From a virus (taxonomy: Duplodnaviria; Heunggongvirae; Uroviricota; Caudoviricetes): DNA of 64,000 nt. Shown piece by piece: positions 2,370-62,315 of this stretch (positions are counted from its first letter, which is position 1; every line of letters starts with the position of its first letter). The stretch is from positions 43,752 to 107,751 of the IMG/VR virus record IMGVR_UViG_3300045988_163275. One strand, 5' to 3'. The position numbers were made by a program, and so were the translations under genes. Below the pieces are notes generated by a model that had not been told where the DNA came from, did no database searches, and saw nothing but the letters and a program-made list of their open reading frames with translations.

Positions 2370-2426
2370 CCTGACGATTTATAAGATACCTGATTTATTA
2401 TAGTAGGTAAATACTTACTTATCTTT

Positions 2427-3023
2427 TTATGACAAAAACCCAATGTCATGCTTGTGAGGCATATCAGCTGCGGAATAGGCGGCGATCTTCGCCAGACGGT
2501 CACACATTTCGTTCTCGCGATGACCTGCATGGCCTTTAACCCACTTCCAGCGGACATTATGACGACTGGCGGCCGCGTCGAGACGTTTCCAGAGATCCAC
2601 GTTTTTGACTGGCTTCTTCTCAGACGTGATCCATCCGTTACGCTTCCAGCCTTTCATCCAGAGCGTCATGCCGTTTTTAAGATACTGGCTGTCGGAATGC
2701 AGGATCACGTTGCAGGGGTACTTCAGACGCTCCAGCGCAATCAGGGCGCCCATCATCTCCATCCGATTGTTGGTCGTGCTGTGGAAGCCCTCAGAAAGCT
2801 CGCGCTCTTCGCCTCGATACTGGAGAACGATGCCGTAACCGCCCGGCCCGCCCGGATTTTTGAGGCAGGAGCCATCACTGAATACTTTTACGGTTTTGAG
2901 CTGGGGATTGAACTCGACTACGGGTGTGTTGAAATTGGTACGGGAATGCTGGTGGGTTTGGCATCTGGCTTTAGACTTCGTGCGGCAGCCAGTGCGTTGC
3001 CGGACTGGGTTCTTGGTCGTCAT
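2427..3023 (-). CDS. rnhA: ribonuclease H (RNase HI type), with N-terminal extension
   Basis: FSDGSC...NPGGPGGYG...[16 protein letters not shown]...HSDSQY...[18 protein letters not shown] matches RNase HI catalytic motifs. Confidence 0.85.
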
Positions 3024-3599
3024 TTTGGCTCCAGAATCGTGCGCCGCGACGATTTTTGTTTTCTCGCGCGTGTGCGCACGCGTGCGTGTAAATAATAAAA
3101 AATTTTATAAAAGAAAAACTTACTTCCCAGAACAGGTTTTAATAAAACCTGAACTGAACGAACGAAGTGAGTGAAGTTCACCTCGAACGAAGTGAGAGGT
3201 TGTCTTTTCAGGTAATACTCTCCCAGGGAGGTGAGTACAAAATTTCCTCACCAACCTGGTCGTTTCATAACCTGAAAAGTTATGACCTAAGTCTACTGCC
3301 AGCTTAGGCTTGGGAAGTTATGGATGACAGCACCCCAGAACCGAGATCTTCCCACACTTTATGAAGGGGAGTACTGGAATCAACCTCTCGAAACACTCCA
3401 GACTCGACAATCATAAAGTGACCCTTCTCTCTGCTCACTTTGGTTCCCCCTTCCCCAACCCCTAAACGGTGCTGGTTCTACGCTGGTAGTGAGCTTTTTT
3501 AAACCTGACGCCAGTGACGCAATCCCCCACCCATCAGGTCGAGCTGCCGAAAGTATCCGGAAGCGGATAGATTGTATCACTGGTTAGTGGCGCTTTGAA

Positions 3600-3617
3600 T
3601 GGTAAGTACTTACCTAT
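3600..3617. promoter_or_regulatory. class-1 palindromic motif (GGTAAGTACTTACC core)
   Basis: Perfect palindrome in intergenic DNA; member of a family with about 20 copies. Confidence 0.45.
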
Positions 3618-3847
3618 TATATTGATTGATTAATTTCTCGCCCATGCAGCTGGACATTCAGAGCAAACACCTCATTGATCAGCTCACCCAACAACTGCTC
3701 CACCAGTTCTATGTGCTCGCCTGAATGAAGACACTTGAGCGACCATTCGTAGAGACTGAAAGCCTTATCGCGATCTTTCATCATGTCGCGTATCTTGGCC
3801 AGAAAATCGCTCTCAACGAGCGCTACGACGTTCGTCGGGTATATCAT
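3617..3847 (-). CDS. hypothetical small protein
   Basis: 76-aa ORF, no recognizable motif. Confidence 0.3.
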   Translation of the reverse strand: MIYPTNVVALVESDFLAKIRDMMKDRDKAFSLYEWSLKCLHSGEHIELVEQLLGELINEVFALNVQLHGREINQSI

Positions 3848-4049
3848 GATAATTTTCCTTACTGTGGTTCATAAAATCGATTCTAGAGCGTCTGGAGAGG
3901 GACTCCAGTGGGTTCTGGAGGTGTAAAACGGTCTGGGAGTTGTTTGGAAATCACGTCTTAAAAAGCCTGCGTCTGTATATATTAATAATTAGTACTTAGT
4001 TATTTATATATACGGAAGCAGGTTCTCAAACTAACTCCCAGACTGGTGT

Positions 4050-4643
4050 TTACGCTGCCTTTTTACGTGGTCTCTTCTTCCTGACAACATTGGCAGGGTC
4101 ATAACCACCCAGCTTTTTCATCACCGCCAGCGGTATCTTGCTGATGGTGTGCCCAGCTTCCTGACAGTAGCCACGGAAGATAAGCAACATGCTGCCACCA
4201 GGGTTGATGTTCACCTCCACCAGCCCAAGTTCAACATCCGGCTCAACGAACGCCACGCGGCCGCCAGACAAGATGACGGTTTCGTTGGCGCATTCAGCCG
4301 CACGCTCGTACCACTGCGTATCGAGGGATTGTGGTATCAGCATGACCGTCGTCACTCCACGCGCCTGCTCGCGAATGGCTGCGTCTATCCAGGGGGTGAT
4401 TTTGGAGTAGGGCGGGTTAAGGAACGCCACAGTGCCAGGTTCTCCCCAACTGCACTTGAGCGCATCACGCTCAACACCGATAAAGTTCGGCAGGAGAGCA
4501 TTATCTTTGTTGCAGGCGACGTCCACATCGAACTTTACGCCTATGTAACGTTGGATGGCGACAAACAACCACTGCGGTGTGCGCCAAAGGTCGCGAAGAG
4601 AGGCATCACGCTCTCGCTTTTTGATTTTTTCGGCTGCGATCAT
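4050..4643 (-). CDS. phage-type DNA N6-adenine methyltransferase (Dam-like)
   Basis: FLNPPYS catalytic motif and overall phage Dam-like pattern; palindromic motif 12 nt upstream of ATG. Confidence 0.75.
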   Translation of the reverse strand: MIAAEKIKKRERDASLRDLWRTPQWLFVAIQRYIGVKFDVDVACNKDNALLPNFIGVERDALKCSWGEPGTVAFLNPPYSKITPWIDAAIREQARGVTTVMLIPQSLDTQWYERAAECANETVILSGGRVAFVEPDVELGLVEVNINPGGSMLLIFRGYCQEAGHTISKIPLAVMKKLGGYDPANVVRKKRPRKKAA

Positions 4644-4654
4644 TACTTTACTCT

Positions 4655-4676
4655 GATAGGTAAATACTTACCTATT
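4655..4676. promoter_or_regulatory. class-1 palindromic motif ATAGGTAAATACTTACCTAT upstream of Dam-like gene
   Basis: 8-bp inverted arms ATAGGTAA/TTACCTAT, 12 nt upstream of start codon. Confidence 0.45.
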
Positions 4677-4797
4677 TTTTCATTTAATCCAACGGATAGC
4701 AAACAAAGAAGAACGCGCCAGATTCGCAAACGGGAAGCTCTCTGGCGCGTTTTATCGATGCTGGGTAAGCCAATTCATACCCAGCATCCTAAAGCTC

Positions 4798-6845: not shown

Positions 6846-7490
6846 TCAGTGGAAGGTCACTCGTCCTGTTATACGGCTCTCGATGTTTTCAGTGGCTCTT
6901 TCCAGCACACGCAATACCGATCTGGCTCGCGCCTCAACCGTGCGGCACTTTTCAGAGATAATGAAAACCTGCAAATCGCCGGTATGGGGAAGGGCGCTAA
7001 TTTTCGTCAGCTCGCCACACATAAGTGCATCGATGCGAGCAACATAGAGACGGTCAAGCGATCCTCGCTGGGGACGCGCGAGATCTTTGCTGGAAAGCTC
7101 AACGCCCGGGCGAAGACCCGCTATAGCATTAAAGTTGGAAATGGCCGCTTTGTGGCAAAACTGCTCAATGTCGAGAGCCAGCTCGATGCAGCGGTCTTCG
7201 TTGGTCTGGCCGACCAGGTCAAGCGTATAAGCCATGACATCGGCTGGCGTGCGGTCGATGACAAAACCTTCAACGCCGCGGGTGATCATCTCGATGTGTC
7301 TGGCAATCTCCATCTGAACCTGAAGACGCTCGTAAAGGGGCAAACGCTCGCCAACCTTCACCCCCAGACTGCTCATCAGCTTGCCAACACCGGCATCCAC
7401 ATACGGAATGCCATAGTGCGCATCGATGTACCTTGCCAGGGTTGTTTTCCCACTGCCCTGTGCGCCAGTGATTCCAATCCGGTAATCCAT
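6846..7490 (-). CDS. P-loop nucleotide kinase (putative dNMP kinase)
   Basis: N-terminal Walker A GITGAQGSGKTT; size and context next to DHFR and ThyA. Confidence 0.6.
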   Translation of the reverse strand: MDYRIGITGAQGSGKTTLARYIDAHYGIPYVDAGVGKLMSSLGVKVGERLPLYERLQVQMEIARHIEMITRGVEGFVIDRTPADVMAYTLDLVGQTNEDRCIELALDIEQFCHKAAISNFNAIAGLRPGVELSSKDLARPQRGSLDRLYVARIDALMCGELTKISALPHTGDLQVFIISEKCRTVEARARSVLRVLERATENIESRITGRVTFH

Positions 7491-7966
7491 TACGACCTTC
7501 TGTATACGATCTGCAAAAAGCCAGGCTCATCCTCATTTGCACGTTGGGTATAAGCCGTTTCGACTGGTACGAACCCTAAAGAACGCATCATTGGCGCCGG
7601 GAAGAACGCATCCGCGCCCGACACATCCACGCCAATATGCGACAGCCAGATCTCTTCAACGTGTGGCATAAAGAGCGAGTAAATCTGCCCGCCACCAATC
7701 ACCCAGACCGGATCTGGTAGTTTTAAAACGTCATCGATGCCAGCGGGGTAGAAACCATTGGGGATATAGCCACGAGAGCGCGTCAAAACGAGGTTATGGC
7801 GCTCTGGCAGCGGGCGTTTGAGACTTTCCATCGTCTTACGTCCCATCACGACAGTGGCGTTTTTGGTGAGTTGTTTGAACAGTTTCAGATCGGTCGGGCA
7901 ACGCCAGGGAAGTTCGTTGCCAATGCCGATTTCATAGTTGCGGCCGACAGCTGCAATCATCTTCAT
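7490..7966 (-). CDS. folA: dihydrofolate reductase
   Basis: MIAAVGRNYEIG...LPW...VVMGRKT...VIGGGQIY pattern typical of DHFR. Confidence 0.85.
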   Translation of the reverse strand: MKMIAAVGRNYEIGIGNELPWRCPTDLKLFKQLTKNATVVMGRKTMESLKRPLPERHNLVLTRSRGYIPNGFYPAGIDDVLKLPDPVWVIGGGQIYSLFMPHVEEIWLSHIGVDVSGADAFFPAPMMRSLGFVPVETAYTQRANEDEPGFLQIVYRRS

Positions 7967-9493: not shown

Positions 9494-9660
9494 ACAAGAT
9501 AAGTAAGTACATACCTATTATTTTATACAAGTTTATCTGTCAGAAGTGTGTAAGGCTAGGAGGGGAGTAAAAAAAATGGTGGCTCTTCGGCCACCATTGC
9601 AATGAGCAATTAAGAACTTGGACAATAAAACACGCCAAGGCAATATATAATGATAAGTAC

Positions 9661-10539
9661 TCACTTACAATTATTTTTTACCATCTCGTAAAGAGATGAG
9701 GACTTCGCCTTCTCAACAAAGCAAGTCAGATCCACATCGCTGTAGGTTGGGGATTTGAGGATCTTGCCATCAGAAACTCTGAAGCCGATCATCATGTCAG
9801 TCCCTTCAGCATGGCGGAACCCCAGATCTTCCTTATCGTATTTGCAATTCTCTACCGCCACACGACGCTCTTCGGCGTCAGCCGGCCACAGCTTGGTCAT
9901 GTTGGAACGGTGGATTTCTGCCACCAGCTCAACAATATCGATTCCGAGAAAATCAGCCAGACGGTAGGTCATCATGCAGGCAACGTAGATTTTGTTCATC
10001 ACGCGGCGCAGCTCCTGCACCAATTCGGAATCGCTTATCGGCTTCGCTTCAAGTTTGTCAGCCAGCGCATTCAGCATTAATGCAGCTTCTTTTGCTTCTT
10101 CAAACGGGATAGCCATATCGTCAAAGACCGTGTTGCCCGGAACCATGATGGTGTGGATGAAGCGATCAACACTCTGCTCTTGGGTGTAGTAACTCATGCC
10201 CGTCGAGATGCCGCCTTTGATGGCCACCATTGTGCCGACGCCCACGTAAAGGAAGTCAGCCATCGCGTCCAGCAGTGCCGTCATATCCCCATTTTTGGCT
10301 GCCGGGATGCCCTCGGTAACTGCTTCTTCGTGGATCAGCTTGGCACGCAGACGCAGTAATGCCGGATCTGGAATGGCACGGCGTGGGTGCTGAAACAGTG
10401 TGTGGAACTGGTCAACCATCAGGTAGATGCTTTCCGTTGTCTTGCCGAAACCGGGATTCAACTCGTAAGGCTCTGGTTTAAACCCCACGAGTTTGTCTGC
10501 GGCAAGTTTCAGATGATCGGTCAGTTTCGTAAATTTCAT
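9661..10539 (-). CDS. hypothetical protein (possible all-alpha MazG-like NTP pyrophosphatase)
   Basis: HEEAVTE...ALLDAMADFLYVG loosely resembles MazG EExxE/D motifs; weak. Confidence 0.35.
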   Translation of the reverse strand: MKFTKLTDHLKLAADKLVGFKPEPYELNPGFGKTTESIYLMVDQFHTLFQHPRRAIPDPALLRLRAKLIHEEAVTEGIPAAKNGDMTALLDAMADFLYVGVGTMVAIKGGISTGMSYYTQEQSVDRFIHTIMVPGNTVFDDMAIPFEEAKEAALMLNALADKLEAKPISDSELVQELRRVMNKIYVACMMTYRLADFLGIDIVELVAEIHRSNMTKLWPADAEERRVAVENCKYDKEDLGFRHAEGTDMMIGFRVSDGKILKSPTYSDVDLTCFVEKAKSSSLYEMVKNNCK

Positions 10540-10765: not shown

Positions 10766-10804
10766 TCATGGTAATAGATAAGCACTTACCTATCAATTAT
10801 CAAC

Positions 10805-16090: not shown

Positions 16091-16487
16091 GTGTCTTTTC
16101 CTTTGTGGTTATTTTGATACAAATTCTAAGCGTGCATAAGAGGCGTACAACCCAGACAACACGGCACACGAAAGAATATAAAGGCACATGATAATGACAA
16201 AAAAAATAAGTAAGTAAATACCTATCAGATAGGGCAGCAACGATTTCTAAACGTCACAAGCAATTTTATGAGAGCAGTCATTTACTGATGACAAGAAATG
16301 AAAAAGGAGAACGGACGGTGAAGTTGTGAGATGACATTTACGGCGTTTGCGTGCGTCGTCTTCAAACGCATCCGTCGGCCACAGTTTCTGCTCTTGAATA
16401 AAATTCACTCATGCATTAATCCCTAAAGCTCTCAGTGTCTTTCTAAGACACCATATTTTATGCCCGGTAAAAAGCATGAGTTTGCCT

Positions 16488-20223: not shown

Positions 20224-20262
20224 GATAGGTAAATGCTAACTTATATATTTTTGCTGTTAATA

Positions 20263-20538
20263 TCACTCAAAAGTGCTGATACCCAAAATGCGCTCAAGAT
20301 GGGCCGCGTCTTCATCGCTTACCAGCATTGTGTCGTCGACGTACCAGCAGCTACCGTTGTGCCAACAAACACCGTCATCATCGATATAAATAGAATCCGT
20401 ATCCATTCCTGTGTATTCAACTAGATTGCGTTCAATTGCCGCTTGAATTTCTTCATCGTTCAGCCCGTCGCACTTGATCATGAACAACGGGTAAACGTCA
20501 TAGTCGCTACTAGATGAAATGCGAACCAAAGTCTTCAT
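20263..20538 (-). CDS. hypothetical acidic protein
   Basis: Start placed at MKTLVRISS ATG with AAGGAG RBS and upstream palindromic motif. Confidence 0.4.
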   Translation of the reverse strand: MKTLVRISSSSDYDVYPLFMIKCDGLNDEEIQAAIERNLVEYTGMDTDSIYIDDDGVCWHNGSCWYVDDTMLVSDEDAAHLERILGISTFE

Positions 20539-21023
20539 GTGTTTTCTCCTTGTTGGTAAGTACTTATCTATCTTAATGGGCGCTATAAGGCGCACAATCA
20601 TTGTGTTCAGGCTGGTGGAAAGAACTTCTCCAGCGTGTGGTTGATAGCCTTATCAATGTGCATCAGGTGGCCAAATTCAGTGTGCCACTTCACTCGAACC
20701 CCAAGACCGGCAATGGAATCGCTTTGTAGAGCTAGAGTTAGTGCCGCATCCTCGTATTGAGCACAGCGAAGCGATTGAGCTAGACTATGGCATGACGGGG
20801 GGCGCTCTAAAGGTTGAGATTAGAGCGGCCTCGGCAGGCTACTTACTCAGACAATGGAATGTGGATTGTTCTACCAACGCCACACTCCAAGATGGTGGAG
20901 CTCAATTGTACTTAAAGAACAGAGCAACACTTTATGGAGTTAAAAACATCATGCTAGCTCCAGGGATTGAAAAAGAACTTGGTAACTAATGCACAAAAAC
21001 GAACTTGGCGCAGAGAATAAATT

Positions 21024-24359: not shown

Positions 24360-24362
24360 TCT

Positions 24363-25049: not shown

Positions 25050-25122
25050 AGAATAAACAATTTCAATCAGTTAAATAGTGCCACATGCTTTTTATGCAAG
25101 GCATCACGCAAAAGGTGAACAC

Positions 25123-27045: not shown

Positions 27046-27140
27046 GGGGGGAGCATGACAAATTTTACCGGATTAAAATTTGCACACAGCCTTGTCGCAG
27101 ACAAGGTGTGCCCAAAGGGTTGCGTACAGGGAGGTGCGCA

Positions 27141-30100: not shown

Positions 30101-30218
30101 CAAGATTGAATGTGCTAGGAAATTCTTTGAAAAAATTAATGCAGAGATAACGAGTGAAAACGTCAAATATGATGTTGTAACGAGTTACTCGAAATTAATG
30201 GAAGTCATAAGCGGTTAG
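27141..30218 (+). CDS. Type III restriction Res-like helicase-nuclease
   Basis: Helicase motif [10 protein letters not shown], motif [11 protein letters not shown], motif [12 protein letters not shown]; C-terminal PD-ExK-like GDYNPDW...IAETKG; start at ATG 27141 with GGGAGGTG RBS. Confidence 0.85.
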
Positions 30219-30274: not shown

Positions 30275-30519
30275 TTACATAAAAATAATTGAAAAATTGA
30301 GTCAGCAGATTGAGTCTAAATGTCGCTCACTCATGCGGTTATATTTTAAGTATGGTTGTTGACATGACGGAGAAATAGCATGAATCCTGAAAAGTGAATC
30401 GCCACTGCCATCAGATAGAGTTTGATCATGTGTTTTCCTATGTGGCTATTGTGTGTAGATGATAAGTAAGTGATTATATATTTTCAAGGTATAAAGACGT
30501 CCATTCGGACGCCTGAAAA

Positions 30520-35149: not shown

Positions 35150-35268
35150 GTATTTCTCCTTGTTGTGATTGTGGCCATTGGCGCTATGCGCATTGGGCGT
35201 TCGTTTGTTCGTGGCTCTTTCGAGCGAGAAGAATGATAGATCAGTACTTACTTACTATCTAGCATAAA

Positions 35269-41321: not shown

Positions 41322-41416
41322 GTTTTTTCCTTACTGTTTGTCGTTTGTGGGGTATATCTTATAGAAATATATTAGGCTGTATAGTAAGTAGTTACTTATT
41401 TTTAAGGGTAAAGCTA

Positions 41417-43648
41417 TTACCAAAGAATGATACGAGATAACTCAGTGACGACTGACGGCCCTAACTCTTCAACACTGTTAACCAGTGCGTAATTTTTGTA
41501 GTAACGCCGTGGTTCGTCGGTCAGAATGCCGATAGCCATCAGTTCGATGTCGCTCAAGGTCTCAATTTCTTTGGTGACGGTTCGTAAATGCTGATGGAAT
41601 CCACTACCTGTAGCACATGGCTCCCCATCACTCATAACCAGCATGATCTTTTTGTCCTCCATTCGCCCTGCAAACAGGGTAGCCAGTTGCGCGACACTCT
41701 CACCATCGACGTTATTGAGCAGGGGGAACGTCTCACATACGCATCCCATGCGAGCACGGATCTCTGGAGAGTTTGCTTTCTCATTCCAGTTTTTGATAAT
41801 GGGCAGCATGAGCGCCTCGAAGCGTGTAAACCCGCGCTTCGACCTGGTTTCATAATCTGGGCTACCGAACGTGGTAAAGCCGGTGATGATGTTGGGGACA
41901 TTGATACGATCTAAAGCATCCGCAATGGTATAGGCACTGGCTAGGGCCAGTTGAATCTTCACGCCATCCATTGAGCCGGACAAGTCGATGACCTGCTGGA
42001 CACACGCATTCACCGCTCTATGGTCTTCCTTCTTGCGGAACACTCGGTCGTCGTTCATTGCCAGACGATACAGGCTCGCGCCATGTATCCGCCCACGCCT
42101 CTGACCAGGTATAAACTGAACTCGGTTGCGGCTGGCGATGGCCCGCTCCAGGTCTTTGGCCAGCGTCGAAGAAACGCCTGCAGACAGATGTTTTTCGATT
42201 TTCAGTTCAAAGAGTTTTCTGCCTTCTGGCACCATACGGTAGCGGTCGACTGGTGAGTGCATTGGTATTGCACCGAACGTCTTTCTGGTGCGCTTCACAT
42301 GCTCTTCGGCTCCATCAATCAACCCGATAAAGTCGTATGATCGATCGTATGGCCGATAATCAGAAGGTGAGACGCTCATAAGCTCTTTGCTGATGGTGGC
42401 CGACAGTGCGTCTTCGGTCATTTCACCGATTCCGTCTTCCATCTCGTCGAGCGCCTTTAGCGCCTCCTCCAGAGTCATTTCATCCGGCGCAGGAACAAAG
42501 CCAGACTCACTGTCTTTGGGCACTTCCGCACCATCTTTATTTTTTTTGCCTTCGACGTCTTCTTCTTCAGTTTCCCCACGATCAGTATCGGAGTCCTCAC
42601 CGCCATCACCATCGGTGTCAGAGTCACTTGATTTCATGCCGATAGCATCGGATTCTGGGGTGTCTCCTGACTCTTCGTGGCCTGCTTCTGTATATTTACT
42701 TTCTGTATCACTAATATCTTTAACGTGTGTAGGTAAGTCCTTATCTAACGAATCAGGCAAATCGGAATCCCCAGAATCTTCCTCTTCTGATGCATCATCT
42801 TCTCGTTCTTCCTTGTCATCGCCTTCGCCTTTGGCAGGCTTAGATGCAGAGTCACCATGAGATGGCTCGTCACCTGATTCTGGCGTTTCCTCGGACTCGT
42901 CTTTGCTCTCCGACGGATTTCTGGCAGATGATTTAAGTTCTGGTAATTTGCCCTCTGGCTTGTCTTTCATATCCTGCATGATTTGGGCTATAGCAGCAGC
43001 GACCTTCACGCAATCCTCAGTGTTCGACATATTGCGAACGGCCACGTCTATACCATGCTCCTTTAGTAAGGCTACCGGCCTCTCGATAAGGCGCCAGTGT
43101 TCTTCCATAAAATCGATGAAGGGGCTTTGTCCATCCCAGGCGCGGACGACCGGGCAAAGGAAGAATTTCAAAAACAATTCACGCTGGTCTCCGTGACAGG
43201 CTAAAACCGCTTCTGGTACTTTATTCCTGAAGTATTTGTCGATAACCAGACTCTGTGTTGCAAGTAAATTACGCCGGGTTCCGTTAAAGACCTGCCCCAT
43301 TCTGCGTTCAATAAAAACGTCTTCCAGCGCATTCCAAAGCCCCGTAGACGGAGCCTTTCCTCTTTCGCGCATCTGCATTGCGACTTTCGGTTCAGTAAAG
43401 AGAATATGGGCCACCTCATGGTCGAGAAAACCACGCACTGCGTTCATGAGGGTTGGCGACGCGTCGTCCGGTATAGATGGGATGTTTACCAGCACTGGTT
43501 CGCCGCGCCGGTTATAGCGGACATATGCTTCATTGCCTCGTTCTGCAACAGGTATCTGTTTACCTGAAAGCATCGCTACAACTCGTTTTACACAGTCGCG
43601 AAAATCCTGCACCTCTTTCAGTACAGCTTTGGTGGTTTTTTTGGACAT
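41417..43648 (-). CDS. von Willebrand factor A domain protein (CobT-like partner of the AAA+ ATPase), with long acidic central region
   Basis: C-terminal MIDAS motif VIDLSGSMDG; acidic Asp/Glu/Ser-rich linker; start placed at MSKKTTKAV ATG 43646-43648 with AAGGGA RBS. Confidence 0.65.
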   Translation of the reverse strand: MSKKTTKAVLKEVQDFRDCVKRVVAMLSGKQIPVAERGNEAYVRYNRRGEPVLVNIPSIPDDASPTLMNAVRGFLDHEVAHILFTEPKVAMQMRERGKAPSTGLWNALEDVFIERRMGQVFNGTRRNLLATQSLVIDKYFRNKVPEAVLACHGDQRELFLKFFLCPVVRAWDGQSPFIDFMEEHWRLIERPVALLKEHGIDVAVRNMSNTEDCVKVAAAIAQIMQDMKDKPEGKLPELKSSARNPSESKDESEETPESGDEPSHGDSASKPAKGEGDDKEEREDDASEEEDSGDSDLPDSLDKDLPTHVKDISDTESKYTEAGHEESGDTPESDAIGMKSSDSDTDGDGGEDSDTDRGETEEEDVEGKKNKDGAEVPKDSESGFVPAPDEMTLEEALKALDEMEDGIGEMTEDALSATISKELMSVSPSDYRPYDRSYDFIGLIDGAEEHVKRTRKTFGAIPMHSPVDRYRMVPEGRKLFELKIEKHLSAGVSSTLAKDLERAIASRNRVQFIPGQRRGRIHGASLYRLAMNDDRVFRKKEDHRAVNACVQQVIDLSGSMDGVKIQLALASAYTIADALDRINVPNIITGFTTFGSPDYETRSKRGFTRFEALMLPIIKNWNEKANSPEIRARMGCVCETFPLLNNVDGESVAQLATLFAGRMEDKKIMLVMSDGEPCATGSGFHQHLRTVTKEIETLSDIELMAIGILTDEPRRYYKNYALVNSVEELGPSVVTELSRIILW

Positions 43649-43655
43649 TAGAATT

Positions 43656-43673
43656 CCCTTGTTGTTAAAACAA
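43656..43673. promoter_or_regulatory. class-2 palindromic motif upstream of VWA/CobT-like gene
   Basis: ttaaaacaatttgttttct immediately 5' of RBS. Confidence 0.45.
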
Positions 43674-43760
43674 TTTGTTTTCTGATGTGCGTAATTTATC
43701 ACTGTACGAACAGGCATCTAATCTGTTCGTACAGGCGCTAGAGAGGATGGGAGGGGGGTG

Positions 43761-43973: not shown

Positions 43974-44229
43974 TTCATATCATCCAACTGAACACGTAAA
44001 TGCCTTGCAATACTACTACCTATTGTATCAATACGGAATACTTATATATCAAATACAACTTAGTTTTAAGTTCTTAAATGAGTTGTTTTTTAGATAGTTG
44101 TCTATTAATGAAGCCTTTTGCGGTCAATAACTCTACGAAAAAAAATAGATAAGTCTTTACAACACTAACCTTTGATGTAATATCAGTAAGCACTTACCAT
44201 ATAAAATCAAAACACGCAGGTTGATAATT

Positions 44230-44619
44230 ATGGCTACCAACGAAATAACAGAAGCTAAAGTAGGTCGCTATGCTGCTTACATTGACGCTTTAATCGCGAT
44301 TTCTCCGAAAAGCCAGGCGACCATCGCGAAAGAAGCAGGCTATAAAAATCCTAACAATCTTTCACTTATCAAGAGCGGCAAAATCCCGCTTCCGATCGAC
44401 AAGGTCAGAGCGTTGGCTAAAGCATTGGATGCCGATTCGGTCCGATTGATGCTAATGGTGCTGGAAGAGCGTCATCCAGAGCTGTTAGCGTTTTTTCGCG
44501 ACGAAGGCACAGCCCCTCTGACTAAAGATGAAAAACTAGTTCTGGAAGCCTTCCGTCGACGTTTCGGTGACCAACGTGGTGCGTCGGAGCGGGTTGTTGA
44601 GGCAATCAAGTCGCTATGA
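44230..44619 (+). CDS. HTH DNA-binding protein (XRE-like)
   Basis: SQATIAKEAGYKNPNNLSLIKSG helix-turn-helix pattern; divergent from integrase gene. Confidence 0.5.
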   Translation: MATNEITEAKVGRYAAYIDALIAISPKSQATIAKEAGYKNPNNLSLIKSGKIPLPIDKVRALAKALDADSVRLMLMVLEERHPELLAFFRDEGTAPLTKDEKLVLEAFRRRFGDQRGASERVVEAIKSL

Positions 44620-45717
44620 GAAATTTACACGGATTAGCTCAGTAGCGAGTCGATCTCCCTTGAACTTATGATCTATCTCCTCTAAATCCTGTTTCTCTAC
44701 GATTGATGCGATGTACGCCGAAAAACTGTTTAAGGCGTCTCGCATCTCGTCTATATAATCGTGTCGATCGTATACTCGATCTATCCCCTCAAGACTGTGG
44801 TTCATAATTTTGCGGGATACCTCCTGACTTATGCCTAACGCGGGGAAGTAACTACGCGCAGTACGACGCAAATCTCGGGGGGTAAATGGCTCAAGCTCCA
44901 TCAACTCTGGACGTTCTAAAATCCTTCTCAACGCCTGTGATATGGCCACCTTAGACATTGGCACATCCTCACCCTGTTTCTTGTTTGAAGGAACAAGCCA
45001 CTGGCTGCCTTTTCCGTATTTGATCAGCTCCTCAACACATTTGCGCATTAGCGGGCTTAATGGTAACGAGTGCTGGCGAGCCGATTTATTCCTCGTTCCT
45101 TGATTCCATAAATTATATTCGAGGTTGAATTCTGATCTTTTAGCTCGGAGCACTTCATCTGGTCGTCTGGCCGCTACAAGGCATAATCTGGCCGCCCACT
45201 TTGTACCCTCACATACGTTGAAGTAGTCCCATACATTCCAAAAGACCCAGACCTCTGCGTCGGTCAGTTTGCGCTCGCGCGGCGTGGGCTTCGCGCCACC
45301 GGCTACTCTGTTAAGCGACATATCGTTCAATGGGGATGTATCAATTAAGCCCTGAAATGCACACCAACTGAGAAACTGCTTCATCAGCGAGAACACACGT
45401 CTGCCCTGGACGATCTTACCTTCCAGTATCAGTGGGTTCACCAGCTGGTTGACCAAGACCCTACTTATATCACTTACCTTTACATCAGAGATATGCGGCA
45501 TTACATGTATCAAAACACAATGAACGGCTATTTCAGGTCGACGCCTCGTTATCAGTAAAGATAAGCGAGTGAATAACATGAAGGCAGAAGAAAACGACAT
45601 GTCTCCGTCGAATTTGGCGGTCGACACTGCCGACAAACCGGAAGCGCGTTCGAGGTACTCGATGGCTTCCCGAGAGGTATTTTCTGCTGCGCGTGCTTTA
45701 TCAAAGGTGTTTTTCAT
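44614..45717 (-). CDS. tyrosine recombinase / integrase-like protein (N-terminus atypical)
   Basis: C-terminal catalytic region FTPRDLRRTARSYF...NHS...RVYDRHDY; first about 70 aa do not resemble an integrase arm domain. Confidence 0.6.
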   Translation of the reverse strand: MKNTFDKARAAENTSREAIEYLERASGLSAVSTAKFDGDMSFSSAFMLFTRLSLLITRRRPEIAVHCVLIHVMPHISDVKVSDISRVLVNQLVNPLILEGKIVQGRRVFSLMKQFLSWCAFQGLIDTSPLNDMSLNRVAGGAKPTPRERKLTDAEVWVFWNVWDYFNVCEGTKWAARLCLVAARRPDEVLRAKRSEFNLEYNLWNQGTRNKSARQHSLPLSPLMRKCVEELIKYGKGSQWLVPSNKKQGEDVPMSKVAISQALRRILERPELMELEPFTPRDLRRTARSYFPALGISQEVSRKIMNHSLEGIDRVYDRHDYIDEMRDALNSFSAYIASIVEKQDLEEIDHKFKGDRLATELIRVNFS

Positions 45718-45889
45718 CGTCCACTCACTGAGTGAAGCCTTTTACTGTATATATAAACAGTATATTAGGCATAAGTTTTTGTATGATCAACCATAAAATA
45801 GCCTGTTTTATACAATGATTCCATACTTAATAGGTATGGAATCATTTAAGGACGGAAATTTAAATTCTGAGATTTTATTAGCGTGATTG

Positions 45890-47926: not shown

Positions 47927-47946
47927 ATAGGTAAGTCATTACCTAT
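47927..47946. promoter_or_regulatory. class-1 palindromic motif ATAGGTAAGTCATTACCTAT upstream of phoH-like gene
   Basis: Same arms as other copies. Confidence 0.45.
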
Positions 47947-49752: not shown

Positions 49753-50500
49753 ATTTTTCGCGGCGGTACTTGTTCATGGACAACCAGGCAACCAAGAACT
49801 TTCCCGCAACTTGCACTTTACGTTAGTGCCAGACGAGGCTTGTGGCTCGCTCACATAGAGCGAAGATCTGGAATCCTTCTCGGCTGTTGATGGCCGCCAG
49901 ACTCTTCGATCTTATTGGATGTATGGAATCATCCATGTTGTGAAACCAGGGGCTACATAGGCAACAATGATTTCACCAGAGGGTTAAAGAATCCTGCTTT
50001 CACAACGTTGAGGCCACTGAACCGATTTATGTTCGACCCAACATATTGATCAGTCACTACAGCTCTGTGGAATCACCTGTATGATTAAAAGAAAAACAGT
50101 GACCTCAACGTTGTGCGCTGGCTAACCAAGCCAGCCGGGTTACGTCGCCGCTTTTAACCCAAGATTAAACGACATAAGTAATGGAAATGACGTAACAGGA
50201 TGGACGGTCAGCTGGCTGAAACCGGGATGATGGAATGGAATGAGGAAACCAACCGCCCATCCTGTTACTTCATCGAATAGGGCATGGGTGGTGCAACATG
50301 CCCTATCCTGCGTTCTGCAATCACACTCGCTCAGTGTGTCCCATTTCGGTGACGAGGCTGGAAACTGACCTCGCTGGTGTTTGGCTTCTTAGGCTACTGC
50401 CAGGTATGCATCTTCGTTTGCAGTTATATTTAACGTTCAAACAGTCGCATCTCAACGAAAACAAAGTGATCTTATACATATTAGATAAGTAAGTAAATAC

Positions 50501-50806
50501 TTATCTATCTGTAATGCGTTTAGTTGCTATCTTTTTGATCAGGCTCCCCTTTTGTTCCGGAGTTCTCGTGATGATGGCGGTAAAACGCTTCGCTTGAATA
50601 GTGATAGTTTCGTTTTCCTTGAGTTCGCCGTAATGCGTCTCTAACAGGGACCCCAGACGCCACAGACCGTCGTCTATGCGTTTATGGCTGGCGAATCTTA
50701 TCAGCAGTAGCTTTACGATTAACTGACCAACGTAAAAGGCAAATCCGAAGCCGGCCGCAACAAGGTAGGTTGCCAGCCACCAGTCGAAGGAAGTCAAATT
50801 GCTCAT
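50501..50806 (-). CDS. hypothetical membrane protein
   Basis: N-terminal hydrophobic segment WWLATYLVAAGFGFAFYVGQLIV. Confidence 0.35.
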   Translation of the reverse strand: MSNLTSFDWWLATYLVAAGFGFAFYVGQLIVKLLLIRFASHKRIDDGLWRLGSLLETHYGELKENETITIQAKRFTAIITRTPEQKGSLIKKIATKRITDR

Positions 50807-53160: not shown

Positions 53161-53240
53161 GCTTCTAACCGTAATCTTGTACTTACTTATTAATCGCAGT
53201 TTAAAGAAGCCCCACGAGGGGCTAAATGTTTTATCGAGGC

Positions 53241-54053
53241 TTACCAGGTCGCCCAGCCAGTCATTTTGTCCTGAGCAGCTTCGAACCGGTATGGGTCCAG
53301 TAAATCGTTGGTACGATGAACGGCGTAGGATTTGGCTTCTTGTTTAATCATGGGTAATTCGTTGGCCATACGAGCCACTTGCCCTGCAAAACTGGCGAGT
53401 ACTCCGTCACATGCCTGACCCGCGTCGACAATGATGCGCACCAGGTCTAAGTCGCTGCGGCACATATCGCAGATAATGCCGTATTCCACCTCACGAATGC
53501 GCTCAACGGCTTTTTTGATATCGCCACTGACCACCAATTCCAGCAAACCAGGTGGAGTTGTCAGATCTGTTACGCGCTCGGTAACTTCAGACTGTTCGAC
53601 AATACTCAGGAACGCCGCGATGGACGGGTCATCCGCCACACCAGCTCTGACTTTGAGCGTGCGAAGAGTTGCGTCGACAATATCCTCAAACCGTTCACCT
53701 TCATCGCACACAGTCTGATTGGTGTAGACAGTCTGATTAGTGTAGACAATGCGACCGTCGTACCATGCACCGGTACTCACTTCGACCGTTGCGTCTTTCA
53801 TCTCGCGAGAGAACGCCACAAGTGCCGCGCGTTTCTGCTTAACACCTGGCAACTCCGGGGACTCTCCAAAACGAACCCAGACCTGCATGTATTTCGAGCC
53901 TTCCGAAAGAGGTACGGTGCTCACGGACGTGGCGATATGCTCCAGTGCAGTTTGGATCGCCTCGTCGATAATCTTCTGGCGCTCTTCTGTATCAATTTCT
54001 ACGCCTGATTTGTCGATGATTTCGGTAACGGACTTCTGAATATCTGCTTTCAT
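53241..54053 (-). CDS. hypothetical protein containing an 18-bp tandem duplication
   Basis: 270-aa ORF; YTNQTVYTNQTV encoded by duplicated tctgatt(g/a)gtgtagaca. Confidence 0.45.
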   Translation of the reverse strand: MKADIQKSVTEIIDKSGVEIDTEERQKIIDEAIQTALEHIATSVSTVPLSEGSKYMQVWVRFGESPELPGVKQKRAALVAFSREMKDATVEVSTGAWYDGRIVYTNQTVYTNQTVCDEGERFEDIVDATLRTLKVRAGVADDPSIAAFLSIVEQSEVTERVTDLTTPPGLLELVVSGDIKKAVERIREVEYGIICDMCRSDLDLVRIIVDAGQACDGVLASFAGQVARMANELPMIKQEAKSYAVHRTNDLLDPYRFEAAQDKMTGWATW

Positions 54054-54133
54054 AAAGGTTCCTCAATTCCTTCTTCGCGCATATTCTTACAGAAAAATAA
54101 GTATGTATCTACTTATCATTGGCGGCGTGCAAT

Positions 54134-56764: not shown

Positions 56765-56782
56765 TAAACAAATTGTTTTCTA
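56765..56782. promoter_or_regulatory. class-2 palindromic motif upstream of dnaB-like gene
   Basis: ttaaacaaattgttttct about 20 bp upstream of ATG. Confidence 0.45.
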
Positions 56783-56806: not shown

Positions 56807-57532
56807 TCAACAGAATCGCCGTGCTTCTTCCAGTTCTTCCGGGAAATGCGCATAAATTACACGCTCAGGTACGATTTCCATCAACCAGACTGCGGAGAAG
56901 ATGATGCGGATGCGTTTATCTCGGGTAATGCCACGCAGACGCTCCAGAATCCACTCAAAATAGCGTTCCTGAATCGGGTCACGCTGCATGTCTCCAAGAT
57001 GCTTAAAACTCACCAGAGAGTCATCCAGACGGGTTACAGCGCGTTTGGCTAACTTCTCTTCGAATATCTCGATCAACTCGGGCTGCCAGAGATGCTGGGG
57101 GCGCGGTAATTTGTCCCACAGCCGTCGTGCAGCTGCGGAAAGAACGGTGGAGATAAAGTAGTCGTATGAGCAGCAATAGCGGTCAGCAAACTGGCGTGCT
57201 TTCCATAGAGACGTTTTATTGGCAGTCGACAACTCCTGATATGGCACACGCTTCAGACCGGTTGTGAATGGAGCCGTCTCATAGTGTTCACGACCATGCG
57301 ACAGCATGATGTATGAGTACTGGCGCTTGTATGCCTCAGTGAAAAGGCATGTGGCCATGAGCGGGTGCATATCGCGATAGTCAAACCATTTGGTTTCGAA
57401 CAGTTCCGCCTCGTCCTTGCAACGTGACAGGCCAATGTTCTCCGCTACCCACTTATCCATGACTGCGGTGTTCCACTCTGTCATGAAATCGTACTGGTCA
57501 TTGTCGATAGTGTTGAAGAAGATCTGGCTCAC
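56807..57532 (-). CDS. hypothetical protein
   Basis: 241-aa ORF. Confidence 0.45.
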   Translation of the reverse strand: MSQIFFNTIDNDQYDFMTEWNTAVMDKWVAENIGLSRCKDEAELFETKWFDYRDMHPLMATCLFTEAYKRQYSYIMLSHGREHYETAPFTTGLKRVPYQELSTANKTSLWKARQFADRYCCSYDYFISTVLSAAARRLWDKLPRPQHLWQPELIEIFEEKLAKRAVTRLDDSLVSFKHLGDMQRDPIQERYFEWILERLRGITRDKRIRIIFSAVWLMEIVPERVIYAHFPEELEEARRFC

Positions 57533-57544: not shown

Positions 57545-57570
57545 AATAGGTATGTACTTACTTATCTAAG
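57545..57570. promoter_or_regulatory. class-1 palindromic motif upstream of 56807..57532 gene
   Basis: aataggtatgtacttacttatctaag. Confidence 0.4.
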
Positions 57571-57814
57571 TGGGCGAATCATAGCGACTGGAGATATTTT
57601 TGGGAAGTGGAAACGGAAGGGAGTTGTTCTGGTGGGTGTCTTTTAAAAGACCTGCTTCCGTATATATTTAATAAGTTACTTATTATTTATATACAGAAAC
57701 AGGCATAACTTGTCGTCTTAGACACCCAGAAGCTCTACACTTTGAGCCTGTAAAATTGATTAAAAACTTATGTGTAAAATAGAACGCATTAGTCAGTAGC
57801 TAAGAGATGCAATA

Positions 57815-58634: not shown

Positions 58635-58994
58635 TTAACCTTTCTTCATCAACTCTCGTTTGATTTCGTCGGTACGCATCGTGACGTCGGCAGCAGTGAT
58701 CGCCTCGTTCAGTTTCACGATGTCTTCGATTTCCTGCGGTGACTTCTCTGCCAGATGGAAAATGGCTGCACGAATCACATCAGAACGGGTGAACTTCTCA
58801 AAACGAGGGATAAACTTCATCATCTCCAACAGTTCGAAGTACTCGTCTTCCAGCGACATTGTGCGGCTTTTAATCTTCTCTTTGCCACGAGTCGGACGCC
58901 CCTGCGGTCTGACTGGCTGGCGCAGTGGAGTGCTGCTTTTGGCCGGTTCTTTAGGCTCATTGCGCTTTGCAAGGTCTCCCATTCTCATGGACAT
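58635..58994 (-). CDS. small partition partner protein (ParG/ParB-like, putative centromere binding)
   Basis: 119-aa basic N-terminus, immediately downstream of parA-like gene with overlapping stop/start. Confidence 0.45.
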   Translation of the reverse strand: MSMRMGDLAKRNEPKEPAKSSTPLRQPVRPQGRPTRGKEKIKSRTMSLEDEYFELLEMMKFIPRFEKFTRSDVIRAAIFHLAEKSPQEIEDIVKLNEAITAADVTMRTDEIKRELMKKG

Positions 58995-59659
58995 TATTCT
59001 TCCTCCAGACTCAAGATGTAATCTACAAACTCTTCGAACTCGGCTTCTGCCTTCTTATCGCGTTCAGCGCCAGTCATTTCAAAGATAGAACGACCTGCCT
59101 CTTCCGCATCGTCATAAACGTTACGGTTGTACAGGTTAACCGGCGCAGCCTCGATGCCGAAAGTTTCGACAATTTCCTTCGCGGCCAGAATACGTGATAC
59201 CTGGGAAGGCAATGACGGACACTGGTTTATTACCGCGCGGATCTTAACTTTCTCGTTCACATTGCGAACGTTGTCGATAATCGGGTCGATATCACGCAGA
59301 GATTTCAAATCACGACGTTTAGGGCGCAGCGGGATGATGATTACATCAGCCATAAGCATCGCCAGACGCTGAATTTCGGAGTCAAAGCCACCAGCATCTA
59401 CCACTACATAATCAGTTCGCCCCTGAAGCGATTTAAGATGTTTGACGATGTCGTCCTGCACATAAGCGAACGGGATCAGTTCAAGATCTTCGTTCTGGCG
59501 ACGGTCTTCACACCAGCTGGTCGTGGTGCGCTGGATATCGATATCGGTGACGTGAACCTTCTTTTTCTTTTTAACTTTGAGACATACCGCAATTTGCTGG
59601 GCAACGGTAGATTTGCCTGGGCCGCCTTTTGTGCCGCCAACCACAATGATCTTGGTCAT
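58994..59659 (-). CDS. parA: ParA/ParF-type partition ATPase
   Basis: Deviant Walker A GGTKGGPGKST, Walker B DYVVVDAGG. Confidence 0.8.
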   Translation of the reverse strand: MTKIIVVGGTKGGPGKSTVAQQIAVCLKVKKKKKVHVTDIDIQRTTTSWCEDRRQNEDLELIPFAYVQDDIVKHLKSLQGRTDYVVVDAGGFDSEIQRLAMLMADVIIIPLRPKRRDLKSLRDIDPIIDNVRNVNEKVKIRAVINQCPSLPSQVSRILAAKEIVETFGIEAAPVNLYNRNVYDDAEEAGRSIFEMTGAERDKKAEAEFEEFVDYILSLEEE

Positions 59660-59692
59660 TGGTGAGTTTCCTTTGCGTGAATTATTGTCGTA

Positions 59693-59709
59693 TGAAACAA
59701 CTTGTTTTC
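59693..59709. promoter_or_regulatory. class-2 palindromic motif upstream of parA-like gene
   Basis: aaacaacttgttttct about 35 bp upstream of ATG. Confidence 0.45.
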
Positions 59710-60248: not shown

Positions 60249-60255
60249 TTTACTC

Positions 60256-60777: not shown

Positions 60778-60945
60778 TGTGTCCCCCTCATTTGAGGGGA
60801 ACTTCGACATCACCAACCGCAAACTCTCTCTCCCATCGTATTGTGAAAAAGGATTTGGCGTTCGGTTTCTTCGGTCATTACATCGTCATTGCTGATATAA
60901 ATAGGTTCAGCGCCATCGCAGAACAACACGCTGGTGGTCTGTGGC

Positions 60946-61197
60946 TTAATTACGCACCCACTTATCATGCAGCTCACGATGAATGACAGAAGCATCTTTC
61001 TGACGTATTTCACTGTTCGTCTCATTCACCACTTCCACTGTGCTTTGAAGACGCTTGTTATCTTCCCGCCGTTCTTTCTCTTCCATACTGCGTCTGGCCA
61101 TATACCCGCCATAGGAGTATGCGCCGACAAGGACTAGAATGACGGCGGCCAGAGTGAACAAAGCGGATTTCATTTTGAACAACAGGCCGCCGAACAT
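60946..61197 (-). CDS. small membrane protein (spanin-like candidate)
   Basis: N-terminal TM LFTLAAVILVLVGAY followed by charged region. Confidence 0.35.
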   Translation of the reverse strand: MFGGLLFKMKSALFTLAAVILVLVGAYSYGGYMARRSMEEKERREDNKRLQSTVEVVNETNSEIRQKDASVIHRELHDKWVRN

Positions 61198-61199
61198 AC

Positions 61200-61892
61200 T
61201 TACACTAATCCTTTCTGGTACTTGCGAACCTGGGACCAGGCAATGAATGCTGCCACAAGAATGGTAGCTACGCCAAAGATGATGCGTACCGTATCTCCAC
61301 TGGAGATATTGCCTTGCGCTTTATCCATTGCGGCAGAAACTTGAGGCATAACGTCGGCAATTTGTGCAAGGCCAATACCTGCAGTGACTGTAGCACCTGC
61401 GGTTTCTTTTGTTACAGGAACGGCTTTTACAGCCTTTACCGGTTTGACAATGCCGGCACGCCGCAGACCTTCTTCGATAAGTTCTGGTGTATACCAGCTA
61501 TTGGGGGTTTTCAGCGGACCTCGGCCATTTTCATGTCTAATGATCGCCTCTACCAGCGGTCTTAAGGTCTCGTAGTCATGCAGATCGATAATCATATCTG
61601 GTGCTACTCCAACGGCTTTGGATACCTCGTTCACATAAGCCAAAGTGTTGTTCTCATGTGGAGGCGCCCAGCGTTCGATGACTTCGCGGATCGTATCAAT
61701 GCTGGAGCCATCTTTTGCGCGGCGCTTGTCGTGGTAAGTAATGAGTGTCACTGCCAATGCCCGAATCCCCCACACGGGGTCTTTAAACGTGCAGAAGCGC
61801 GGTTCTGAAGAGTTGTTGACTAAGCCCTGCCACGGCGCTCCTTTATCAAGATTACCGGGGTTGTTATTACGAATGCCTCTCGGAGTTTTCAT
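61200..61892 (-). CDS. putative lysis-cassette protein (possible peptidoglycan hydrolase) with C-terminal TM
   Basis: GIRNNNPGNL...WQG block and position between holin-like and spanin-like genes; start at ATG 61890-61892 with AGGAGA RBS; function not verified. Confidence 0.35.
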   Translation of the reverse strand: MKTPRGIRNNNPGNLDKGAPWQGLVNNSSEPRFCTFKDPVWGIRALAVTLITYHDKRRAKDGSSIDTIREVIERWAPPHENNTLAYVNEVSKAVGVAPDMIIDLHDYETLRPLVEAIIRHENGRGPLKTPNSWYTPELIEEGLRRAGIVKPVKAVKAVPVTKETAGATVTAGIGLAQIADVMPQVSAAMDKAQGNISSGDTVRIIFGVATILVAAFIAWSQVRKYQKGLV

Positions 61893-61905
61893 CCTTGATC
61901 TCCTG

Positions 61906-62241
61906 TTATTGCAATCCATTTTTTACGCCATACGCGGCCAATCCTAAAAGCAGTACGGTAATAATGAACGACGTTATTTTCGAAACAATGCCGCCAAAGA
62001 ACCCACTGGAGATGGTGTCGAGCCGGTTAAGAAGTTTGTCCAGATTGGAGTGCTGAATGCTGTGTTGTGCGGGCGTCATATCGCCAAAGTAGGTTTTGAG
62101 CTGGTCATTGACCTCCTGACCAATTTCCTCGCGTATTTCTTTACCTAATTTGCCTACGACTTCCCGAGCAACGATTGAGGCGATGCGCTCAACCTGTTCA
62201 GTTGTGACTCCCGCCATCTCGTTCGACATGTTTTCCTCCAT
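61906..62241 (-). CDS. holin-like small membrane protein
   Basis: C-terminal TM ITSFIITVLLLGLAAYGV. Confidence 0.35.
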   Translation of the reverse strand: MEENMSNEMAGVTTEQVERIASIVAREVVGKLGKEIREEIGQEVNDQLKTYFGDMTPAQHSIQHSNLDKLLNRLDTISSGFFGGIVSKITSFIITVLLLGLAAYGVKNGLQ

Positions 62242-62289
62242 GAAAAGTCAAATCGGGATGGCGTGTTTATATCATATTTTAACCATTTG

Positions 62290-62315
62290 TAGTAGGTATG
62301 TACTTACCTACTATA
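62290..62315. promoter_or_regulatory. class-1 palindromic motif TAGTAGGTATGTACTTACCTACTA upstream of holin-like gene
   Basis: 9-bp inverted arms around TGTAC. Confidence 0.45.

Follow-up and report, generated by a model that had tools for sequence, protein, structure and literature searches.

Dispersed palindromes in the window

The stretch analyzed here (the window) comprises 64,000 nt, positions 43,752 to 107,751 of IMG/VR virus record IMGVR_UViG_3300045988_163275, and carries a palindrome, ATARGTAAGTACTTACYTAT, in many copies. The window shares 93% identity with Salmonella phage SSU5 and 99.4% with the E. coli plasmid NZ_CP100974.1, with further matches to hundreds of ~105- to 115-kb non-mobilizable plasmids of Escherichia, Klebsiella, Salmonella, Enterobacter, and Yersinia, and these matches identify it as part of an E. 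coli SSU5/pHCM2-type phage-plasmid. E. coli, Salmonella (including Typhi), Klebsiella, and Enterobacter commonly harbour such elements, which carry resistance genes, e.g., dfrA51 in the window. The majority of the genes in the window lie on the minus strand, and a defence island at ~20.7 to 30.2 kb lies on the plus strand.

Strong copies of the palindrome number 18, and the total is about 18 to 20, bearing out an earlier note on this DNA that had counted about 20, far beyond chance. Sites were found with an iterated symmetric position weight matrix (PWM), using at least 9 bits for all sites and at least 18 bits for strong sites. At the lower threshold, the window has 29 sites against a shuffle mean of 2.1; at the higher, about 18 to 20. 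The pattern ATAGGTAAGTACTTACCTAT, allowing up to 3 mismatches, occurs 10 times in the window and in none of 100 dinucleotide shuffles. Sixteen of the 18 strong sites are intergenic, although intergenic DNA makes up 12% of the window (binomial P = 2e-13). The note's placement of most copies upstream of minus-strand genes also stands: nearly all sites are so placed, 1 to ~230 nt from the start codon and about half of them within 40 nt (Table 1).

Seventeen of the 21 positions listed earlier are true members of the set (2401, 3600, 4655, 9500, 9651, 10776, 16206, 20224, 20564, 30461, 35240, 41381, 47927, 50483, 54097, 57545, and 62290). The copy listed at 44185 has a perfect 12-bp core with degenerate arms, that at 53176 is weak (15.5 bits), and 3988 and 57670 turned out to be centres of a different, longer palindrome (53 to 57 bp with 26-nt arms). 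An intragenic copy at 42729 had been missed. The palindrome continues weakly beyond 20 bp, and since the flanks are themselves weakly symmetric (TG...CA or AA...TT), the site spans 24 to 26 bp. In two of the three frames of either strand, the motif also contains stop codons (TAG/TAA at positions 2 to 4 and 6 to 8), and several window genes terminate in or at a copy.

Full-genome scans found about 26 sites (25 to 28 in each genome) in the near-identical plasmid NZ_CP100974.1, in the relative Cyrano, and in SSU5, at orthologous junctions. They serve early as well as late operons, the late ones at terminase/portal, after the major capsid gene, at tail genes, and at holin. These copies in late and structural operons, and the link to SlmA/TetR-type operators described below, go beyond the earlier note. 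When IMG/VR was scanned for the exact pattern, 39 stretches came back, each of them SSU5-like (~75 to 84% identity). At 80 terminase-anchored loci, the palindrome overlaps the large-terminase stop codon in every clade examined; its arms, ATAGGTA...TACCTAT, are invariant, and its centre is clade dependent, reading AAGTACTT, GGTTAACT, or AT-rich. In the full genome of a Cronobacter relative (JZ38), about 20 sites follow the pattern ATAGGTAG[Y]T|A[R]CTACCTAT, a Moellerella relative has the motif RTAGGTATTTAMATACTTAT, and Morganellaceae-type relatives have AT-rich motif centres. Because all sites change in concert within one bacterial family while the outer arms stay invariant, the presumed binder is most likely element encoded and allele specific, as with heteroimmunity. 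The motif is not described in the literature searched on SSU5, pHCM2, phage-plasmid promoters and repressors, the core sequence, or SlmA plus phage. The palindrome set is real and new to that literature, and it is best read as a known kind of system, a genome-wide phage-plasmid operator set.

A duplex DNA site overlapping predicted promoters

Is the palindrome read as DNA or as RNA? Selection on an RNA or cruciform hairpin should leave deviations in one half matched by compensating ones in the other. Paired stem positions are as frequent as expected for independent halves (161 observed versus 161.2 in the plasmid, 132 versus 135 in Cyrano, 272 versus 275.6 pooled), and ~20% of stem positions are unpaired, again as for independent halves. 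The motif stems show no sense-strand advantage of G-U pairs, conservation of the 5' half equals that of the 3' half in two of the three genomes, with no consistent asymmetry, and the motif matches no Rfam family. Independent variation of the halves, without compensatory change, argues that the motif is a double-stranded DNA site for a symmetric protein and not an RNA hairpin. The earlier note had included a 5'-untranslated-region hairpin among its candidate roles. An intercistronic or leader hairpin acting in processing, stabilization, or translational control, possibly with an FljA-like (Flag1_repress) protein as RNA-binding partner, now seems very unlikely. Copies do adjoin ribosome-binding sites and occur between cistrons, and the fliC leader contains ATAGGATAAC. 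However, the fliC likeness is a 5-mer match of marginal significance, predicted transcription starts often lie within or after the motif so that the hairpin would be outside the transcript, and the divergence of the FljA-like protein does not follow the motif variants.

Alignments of orthologous gaps revealed that -35 and -10 boxes around the motif are conserved across relatives. Examples are TTGAAA-[motif]-TATCAT at the RecA-like gene and also inside the portal gene, and TT(T/A)ACA-16/17-TAG(C/T)AT at 20225, where the -10 box lies inside the motif. As a control, the best sigma-70-like score within +/-35 nt was compared between strands. The sense strand outscores the antisense strand at 14 of 17 window sites (P = 0.006) and at 19 of 24, 16 of 21, and 20 of 22 sites in three genomes (P = 0.002 to 0.0001). 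The register varies, with the -10 box starting at motif position -17, -3, 7, 12, 18, 21, or 29 to 35, and no element outside the motif is conserved at a fixed distance. Variable register combined with constant promoter overlap points to the geometry of repressor operators, as in the annotated C1 operators of P1, and is unlike that of activator sites or dedicated promoters.

RNA sequencing of Cyrano lysogens shows genes behind sites at background expression (PMC9928086 supplement). In some conditions, expression rises exactly at several sites, namely, from CYRAN_59 to 60, 55 to 56, 11 to 12, and 80 to 81. The first of these steps is 16-fold and lies at the orthologue of copy 20225; a step also lies at the orthologue of copy 30462 (RecA-like). 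CYRAN_34, the orthologue behind copy 54097, is expressed above its neighbours, and CYRAN_31, behind copy 57546, is silent beside highly expressed upstream genes (PMC9928086 supplement). Background expression behind the sites together with steps at the sites suggests that promoters are present but normally off.

We propose that the palindromes are duplex-DNA operators for one symmetric regulator, a dimer or dimer of dimers, of essentially all lytic transcription units, a proposal whose chances we put as evenly balanced. Each copy overlaps a predicted sigma-70-type promoter, at the -35 box, the spacer, or the -10 box or just after +1, and because of this overlap, a bound protein would occlude RNA polymerase. 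Replication, nucleotide-metabolism, lysis, and structural genes would thereby be kept silent during plasmid life, by a logic resembling that of the dispersed P1 C1 operators. Among the roles suggested earlier, that of operators for a C1-like global repressor fares best, in view of the symmetric and independent halves, the variable-register promoter overlap, the silence of downstream genes in the lysogen of a relative, and the concerted clade-specific variants. We infer here that a protein binds the sites, that it represses, and, further below, which protein it could be. For the silencing of ~100 kb of lytic genes in SSU5/pHCM2-type elements, no account was found in the literature searched. An operator on nearly every lytic promoter would offer a handle for finding the master regulator and a signature for annotating transcription units, and the clade-specific inner bases might predict immunity groups.

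The comparison with P1 is close in some respects. Both elements are large plasmid prophages with many copies of one genome-dispersed operator, which falls on sigma-70 promoters of genes for replication, methylases, and morphogenesis, in positions that vary with respect to -35 and -10. According to the P1 annotation, the 17-bp C1 operators lie at varied promoter positions of dmt, ban, lpa, and pmg genes; the window likewise has many dispersed sites overlapping promoters at varied positions, its promoters being predicted ones. The differences are that the P1 operators are asymmetric 17-mers, ATTGCTCTAATAAATTT (15 annotated ones were extracted), whereas the window site is an unrelated 20- to 26-bp palindrome, and that window-type sites also occur inside late operons, whereas late control in P1 is separate, via Lpa. 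Another repeated regulatory unit of large phage genomes is the promoter-stem-loop (PeSL) cassette of T4-type phages, reportedly a ~50- to 70-bp promoter-plus-hairpin unit of hyperplastic regions described by Arbiol et al. in 2010. It resembles the present sites in being a repeated intergenic regulatory cassette, sometimes with a hairpin, but the present unit, a protein-type palindrome of 20 bp, sits at conserved junctions between core genes.

Several points weigh against the operator proposal. Within this clade, conservation is even across the 20 positions and does not drop at the centre, a pattern not usual in sites of a simple helix-turn-helix dimer. The promoters were placed by prediction from sequence, and sense promoters are expected upstream of genes anyway, so that the strand comparison speaks for co-location and not for function or mechanism. 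Several copies lie between a stop codon and a terminator hairpin, or within genes, where a promoter-blocking role is not obvious. Moreover, the element encodes no homologue of C1, Coi, Lpa, or TetR, and an XRE-type regulator with a core site on its own promoter is absent from the motif-bearing SSU5.

Could the site instead activate? The palindrome might be the site of an element-encoded activator or part of a phage-specific lytic promoter, similar to the -22 element of P1 late promoters with Lpa. Some copies run into or end in a -10-like hexamer without a good -35 box (2403: ...TAC TATAAT), in many copies the bases from motif position 18 onwards spell TATCAT or TATGAT, expression steps up at some sites, and clade-specific variants are compatible with any element-encoded factor. 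On the other hand, P1-type late promoters have a 9-bp element fixed at -22 beside the -10 box, and here the register relative to -10 and -35 is not fixed. Two copies sit inside near-consensus sigma-70 promoters (TTGAAA-17-TATCAT) that should need no activator, copy 57546 lies downstream of the start site of its promoter, several copies are 1 to 17 nt from a start codon, and the flanks are themselves symmetric and therefore not a directional -10 box. Homologues of Lpa, sigma factors, or RNA polymerase were not found in the element. We thus consider activation improbable, and the promoter element for an element-specific transcription factor or polymerase, which the earlier note had entertained, is disfavoured on the same grounds.

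Beside copy 3598, a stretch of ~590 nt (3024-3616) without a convincing gene lies behind the conserved promoter that abuts the copy, and the motif centre would be near -43.5. Its Cyrano counterpart, "CYRAN_81," is expressed at 12 times background in lysogens whereas its neighbours are silent (PMC9928086 supplement). The stretch is a candidate regulatory RNA or small-protein locus.

Table 1. Copies of the palindrome in the window and the gene following parA. Promoters are predicted and written as -35 box, spacer length, and -10 box; bits are PWM scores; SlmA and SBS (SlmA-binding site) are treated in the next section.
Feature	Coordinates	Location	Score and remarks
Motif copy GTAGGTAAATACTTACTTAT	2403..2422	Intergenic, upstream of gene 1776-2369 (-)	25.8 bits; kept in SSU5, Cyrano, and IMG/VR relatives, there widened to a ~30-bp palindrome
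Motif copy	3598..3617	Abuts -35 of conserved promoter reading into ~590-nt non-coding stretch	Perfect SlmA-type core GTAAGTACTTAC
Motif copy	4656..4675	12 nt upstream of adenine methyltransferase gene 4050-4643 (-)	27.8 bits; conserved promoter TTGCYA-17-(TGn)AAAAAT, -10 ends within motif
Motif copy	9499..9518	Upstream of thymidylate synthase; intrinsic terminator precedes	28.8 bits; conserved TAAAAT at motif edge (alignment)
Weaker motif copy	9649..9668	Overlaps stop codon of 9661-10539 (-)	18.0 bits; one mismatch to SBS rule
Motif copy	10774..10793	In spacer of TTGATA-17-TACCAT; terminator hairpin follows	
Motif copy	16206..16225	115 nt upstream of sbcD-like gene	26.9 bits; conserved in SSU5
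Motif copy	20225..20244	1 nt before ATG	-10 TAGCAT inside motif, behind TTAACA-16
Motif copy	20552..20571	13 nt before ATG of 20263-20538 (-)	AAGGAG between
Motif copy	30462..30481	Upstream of RecA-like gene	Fills spacer of near-consensus TTGAAA-17-TATCAT; promoter score 13.1
Motif copy	35236..35255	Upstream of gp32-like SSB gene	TAGATA-17-TATCAT
Motif copy	41380..41399	Upstream of CobS-like AAA ATPase gene	
Intragenic motif copy	42729..42748	Within CobT-like gene	Also in SSU5
Core-only copy GTAAGCACTTAC	44182..44201	Over -10/+1 of promoter of XRE-type regulator gene 44230-44619 (+)	Predicted promoter TTTACA-16-TAATAT; block conserved with Cyrano; perfect SBS-rule match
Motif copy	47927..47946	Upstream of gene 47259-c.47900 (-)	25.5 bits; ATGACT-17-TATAGT
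Motif copy	50485..50504	Overlaps stop of 50501-50806 (-), upstream of tRNA region	26.9 bits; TTTACT-17-TAAGAT
Motif copy	54097..54116	43 nt upstream of 53241-54053 (-)	22.4 bits
Motif copy	57546..57565	13 nt before start of 56807-57532 (-)	About +6 to +25 of conserved promoter TTCCCA-17-TATGAT
Motif copy	62292..62311	Upstream of holin-like gene 61906-62241 (-)	24.9 bits; orthologous sites in SSU5 and Cyrano
119-aa protein	58635-58994 (-)	Directly after small ParA gene 58994-59659	Ribbon-helix-helix-like signature KIKSRTMSL...FTRSDVIRAAI

Candidate binders: SlmA, TetR-type regulators, and proteins of the element

Which protein could read the site? E. coli SlmA, a TetR-family nucleoid-occlusion factor, binds GTGAGTACTCAC and is strict only at positions 1, 2, 4, and 5 (G, T, A, and G); any purine is accepted at position 3 (dissociation constant ~60 nM for G-to-A versus ~50 nM) and any pyrimidine at position 6 (PMC3020112). 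Unexpectedly, the core of the motif, GTAAGTACTTAC, agrees with this 12-bp rule throughout. The pattern GTRAGYRCTYAC at up to one mismatch has 11 matches in the window (2 perfect and 9 with one mismatch) versus 1.2 expected, and at least one fully conforming inner half is present in 18 of 19 sites. The phage matrix scores the published 20-bp E. coli SBS consensus at 14.2 bits and the natural site SBS17 at 12.0 bits, both in register (P about 1e-4), and gives no score for SBS12. The 20-bp architecture, with two tandem TRAG units per half, also matches GTAAGTGAGCGCTCACTTAC.

A scan of one genome per species (GTDB) found the exact 20-mer ATAAGTAAGTACTTACTTAT once each in 12 unrelated genomes, and a one-base variant in a 13th. 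The 12 genomes range from 30 to 75% G+C and belong to Planctomycetota, Streptomyces, Nitrospirae, and other phyla, with the 20-mer in promoter-like positions; 6 of the 10 open reading frames (ORFs) tested next to it encode TetR-family regulators. The scan returned no SSU5-like plasmids, only such single-copy, TetR-linked sites in other phyla. The occurrence of ATAAGTAAGTACTTACTTAT beside TetR genes in unrelated phyla makes it look like a widely conserved operator archetype of a TetR subfamily. In those phyla, the exact 20-mer lies immediately upstream of TetR-family genes, as expected of autoregulatory operators, but as a single site beside the regulator gene, whereas the present element has ~26 sites and no TetR-family gene. 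A TetR hidden Markov model built from six proteins adjoining the identical palindrome had no match at E of 10 or below among 3801 ORFs of four genomes, and the annotations examined list no TetR-family gene either.

With the core equal to the SlmA consensus and no TetR gene in the element, host SlmA is predicted to bind many copies in E. coli, at 25 to 50 times the chromosomal site density. It is conceivable that the copies are selected SBSs for host SlmA acting as a dimer of dimers. SlmA might then be a host-supplied repressor of the overlapped promoters, or it might make the plasmid nucleoid-like towards FtsZ, with copies protected or positioned at division and division blocked at lytic amplification. 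The core satisfies every experimentally defined requirement (PMC3020112), a reporter is repressed when SlmA occupies an SBS in its promoter, and in Vibrio the protein is a transcriptional regulator (PMC5519180). Three observations stand against selection for SlmA. The Cronobacter JZ38 relative, from a host background canonical for SlmA, has ~20 sites that depart from the rule at the critical positions 4 and 5. In Morganellaceae-type relatives the centres are AT-rich, and a conserved host protein does not explain concerted clade-specific change. Finally, the SBSs of the E. coli chromosome lie mostly within genes (2 of 24 are intergenic) and not in promoters (PMC3020112, PMC5519180), in contrast to 16 of 18 intergenic sites in the window. 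They are also sparse, 24 to 52 per 4.6 Mb, whereas the window has about one site per 3.5 to 6 kb, and some relatives of the element, from similar hosts, have variants not expected to bind SlmA. Because these variants break critical positions and chromosomal SBSs are not promoter associated, SlmA ranks second as the selected function, and we regard it as a tentative and rather unlikely one. In its fullest form, this alternative holds that the SSU5/pHCM2-type family, widespread in enterobacteria, is loaded with ~26 high-affinity SlmA sites and has co-opted SlmA as a copy-number-titratable lytic silencer, as a coupler of FtsZ and segregation that stops division on amplification, or as both, for which the chances are similarly modest. 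Should the SlmA match prove functional, this would be the first mobile element to exploit the nucleoid-occlusion system.

For the operator proposal, the allele-specific binder would be sought in the element itself. Searches with P1 C1, Coi, and Lpa (tblastn against the window, the plasmid, Cyrano, and SSU5) gave no match at E of 1 or below, and a ranking of orthologues conserved in SSU5-type genomes and divergent in JZ38 yielded no clear regulator. The integrase-linked XRE regulator (44230-44619), with a core site on its own -10/+1, was rejected because SSU5 lacks the gene yet has all the sites. The FljA-like protein is encoded outside the window and is probably an RNA binder (weak Sm-like matches), and its divergence does not track the motif type. 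A 92-aa protein of the CYRAN_117 family, encoded after a UvsW-like helicase and expressed in lysogens, was suspected to be a ribbon-helix-helix protein; its model is all-helical with a disordered N terminus (model confidence, pLDDT, 70), neither Pfam nor PDB supports the idea, and some clades lack the protein or have no detectable copy of it. HicB-like, Rha/Ant, and SSU5_116 "repressor-like" proteins are not universal or have no associated site. LexA boxes exist, but they have a different sequence and lie at other loci.

A weak candidate for the binder is the 119-aa protein encoded at 58635-58994, directly after the small ParA gene. Every clade with the SSU5-type motif, one of them at ~50% overall identity, has IKSRTMS as the presumed DNA-reading strand of this protein; the strand differs in the Cronobacter (IQSRTMS) and Moellerella (IKSRTVS) clades, both of which have different motifs, a comparison of three clades only. 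Such a protein suggests another function, in which the copies would be centromere-like or organizing sites for a post-parA adaptor that doubles as a global repressor, as omega of pSM19035 and KorB of RK2 do. The gene position and the ribbon-helix-helix-like signature fit an adaptor, the Cyrano orthologue is expressed at 9 times background in lysogens (PMC9928086 supplement), and the presumed DNA-reading strand differs in exactly the clades whose motif differs. However, the covariation rests on those three clades, and the fold is unconfirmed, with no Pfam, PDB, or fold support and a low-confidence model. KorB and omega are plasmid-encoded DNA-binding proteins that act on a dozen or more palindromic or repeated operators across a replicon, which the window may resemble in having a putative partition adaptor gene. 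In those systems, the same site recurs at the par promoter or centromere, whereas upstream of parA in the window the motif is missing and a different palindrome, AAACAAnTTGTTT, is found; this one occurs 4 times in the window and would be the more natural target of the adaptor. A partition role for the dispersed copies appears improbable. The linked par gene is carried by about 800 plasmids in PLSDB.

Other palindromes, boxes, and genes of the element

The palindrome AAACAAnTTGTTT occurs at 395-407, 43668-43680, 56766-56778, and 59695-59707 (0.28 copies expected), with one copy 36 nt upstream of parA and one ~20 nt upstream of a DnaB-like helicase gene. It is likely the operator or centromere of the ParA-adaptor system. 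A further repeat family consists of the 53- to 57-bp palindromes at 3966-4022 and 57651-57703, with 26-nt arms (CCTGCKTCYGTATATAT...ATATACRGAARCAGG) and an AT-rich centre. Further copies lie near 33473 and 78323 in SSU5; in Cyrano, one is at 78099 and another closes the linear record, a short way upstream of the small terminase gene. These palindromes are possibly bidirectional terminators or packaging/recombination sites.

A near-perfect LexA box, TACTGTATATATAAACAGTA, lies at 45745-45760, ~28 nt upstream of the integrase gene 44614-45717 (-), and is conserved in Cyrano. Relatives have a further LexA box ahead of a small gene (SSU5_103; plasmid 78686-78949) whose product could be an SOS-controlled antirepressor. 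The FljA-like gene outside the window (NZ_CP100974.1 68868-69395, SSU5_121, CYRAN_114), whose product has the weak Sm-like matches, is moderately expressed in lysogens, and its product might silence host flagellin, i.e., act in lysogenic conversion.

The plus-strand island (20741-30218), inserted beside the replication region, contains no motif copies. By comparison with the annotated plasmid, its products are a WYL fragment, a large helicase-related protein, a DUF4391 protein, a DNA methyltransferase, and a type III restriction enzyme. This defence cassette differs among close relatives, others of which carry a type I restriction-modification system. Homology with the annotated plasmid identifies the dihydrofolate reductase gene 7490-7966 (-) as dfrA51, an allele for trimethoprim resistance that has been reported in phage-plasmids. 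A tRNA-Lys call by ARAGORN at 59591-59671 (+) overlaps the start of parA, has no Rfam support, and is probably spurious. An Rfam match to IS009 (191 bits) lies at 62403-62601 (-), within a tail-fibre-assembly gene.

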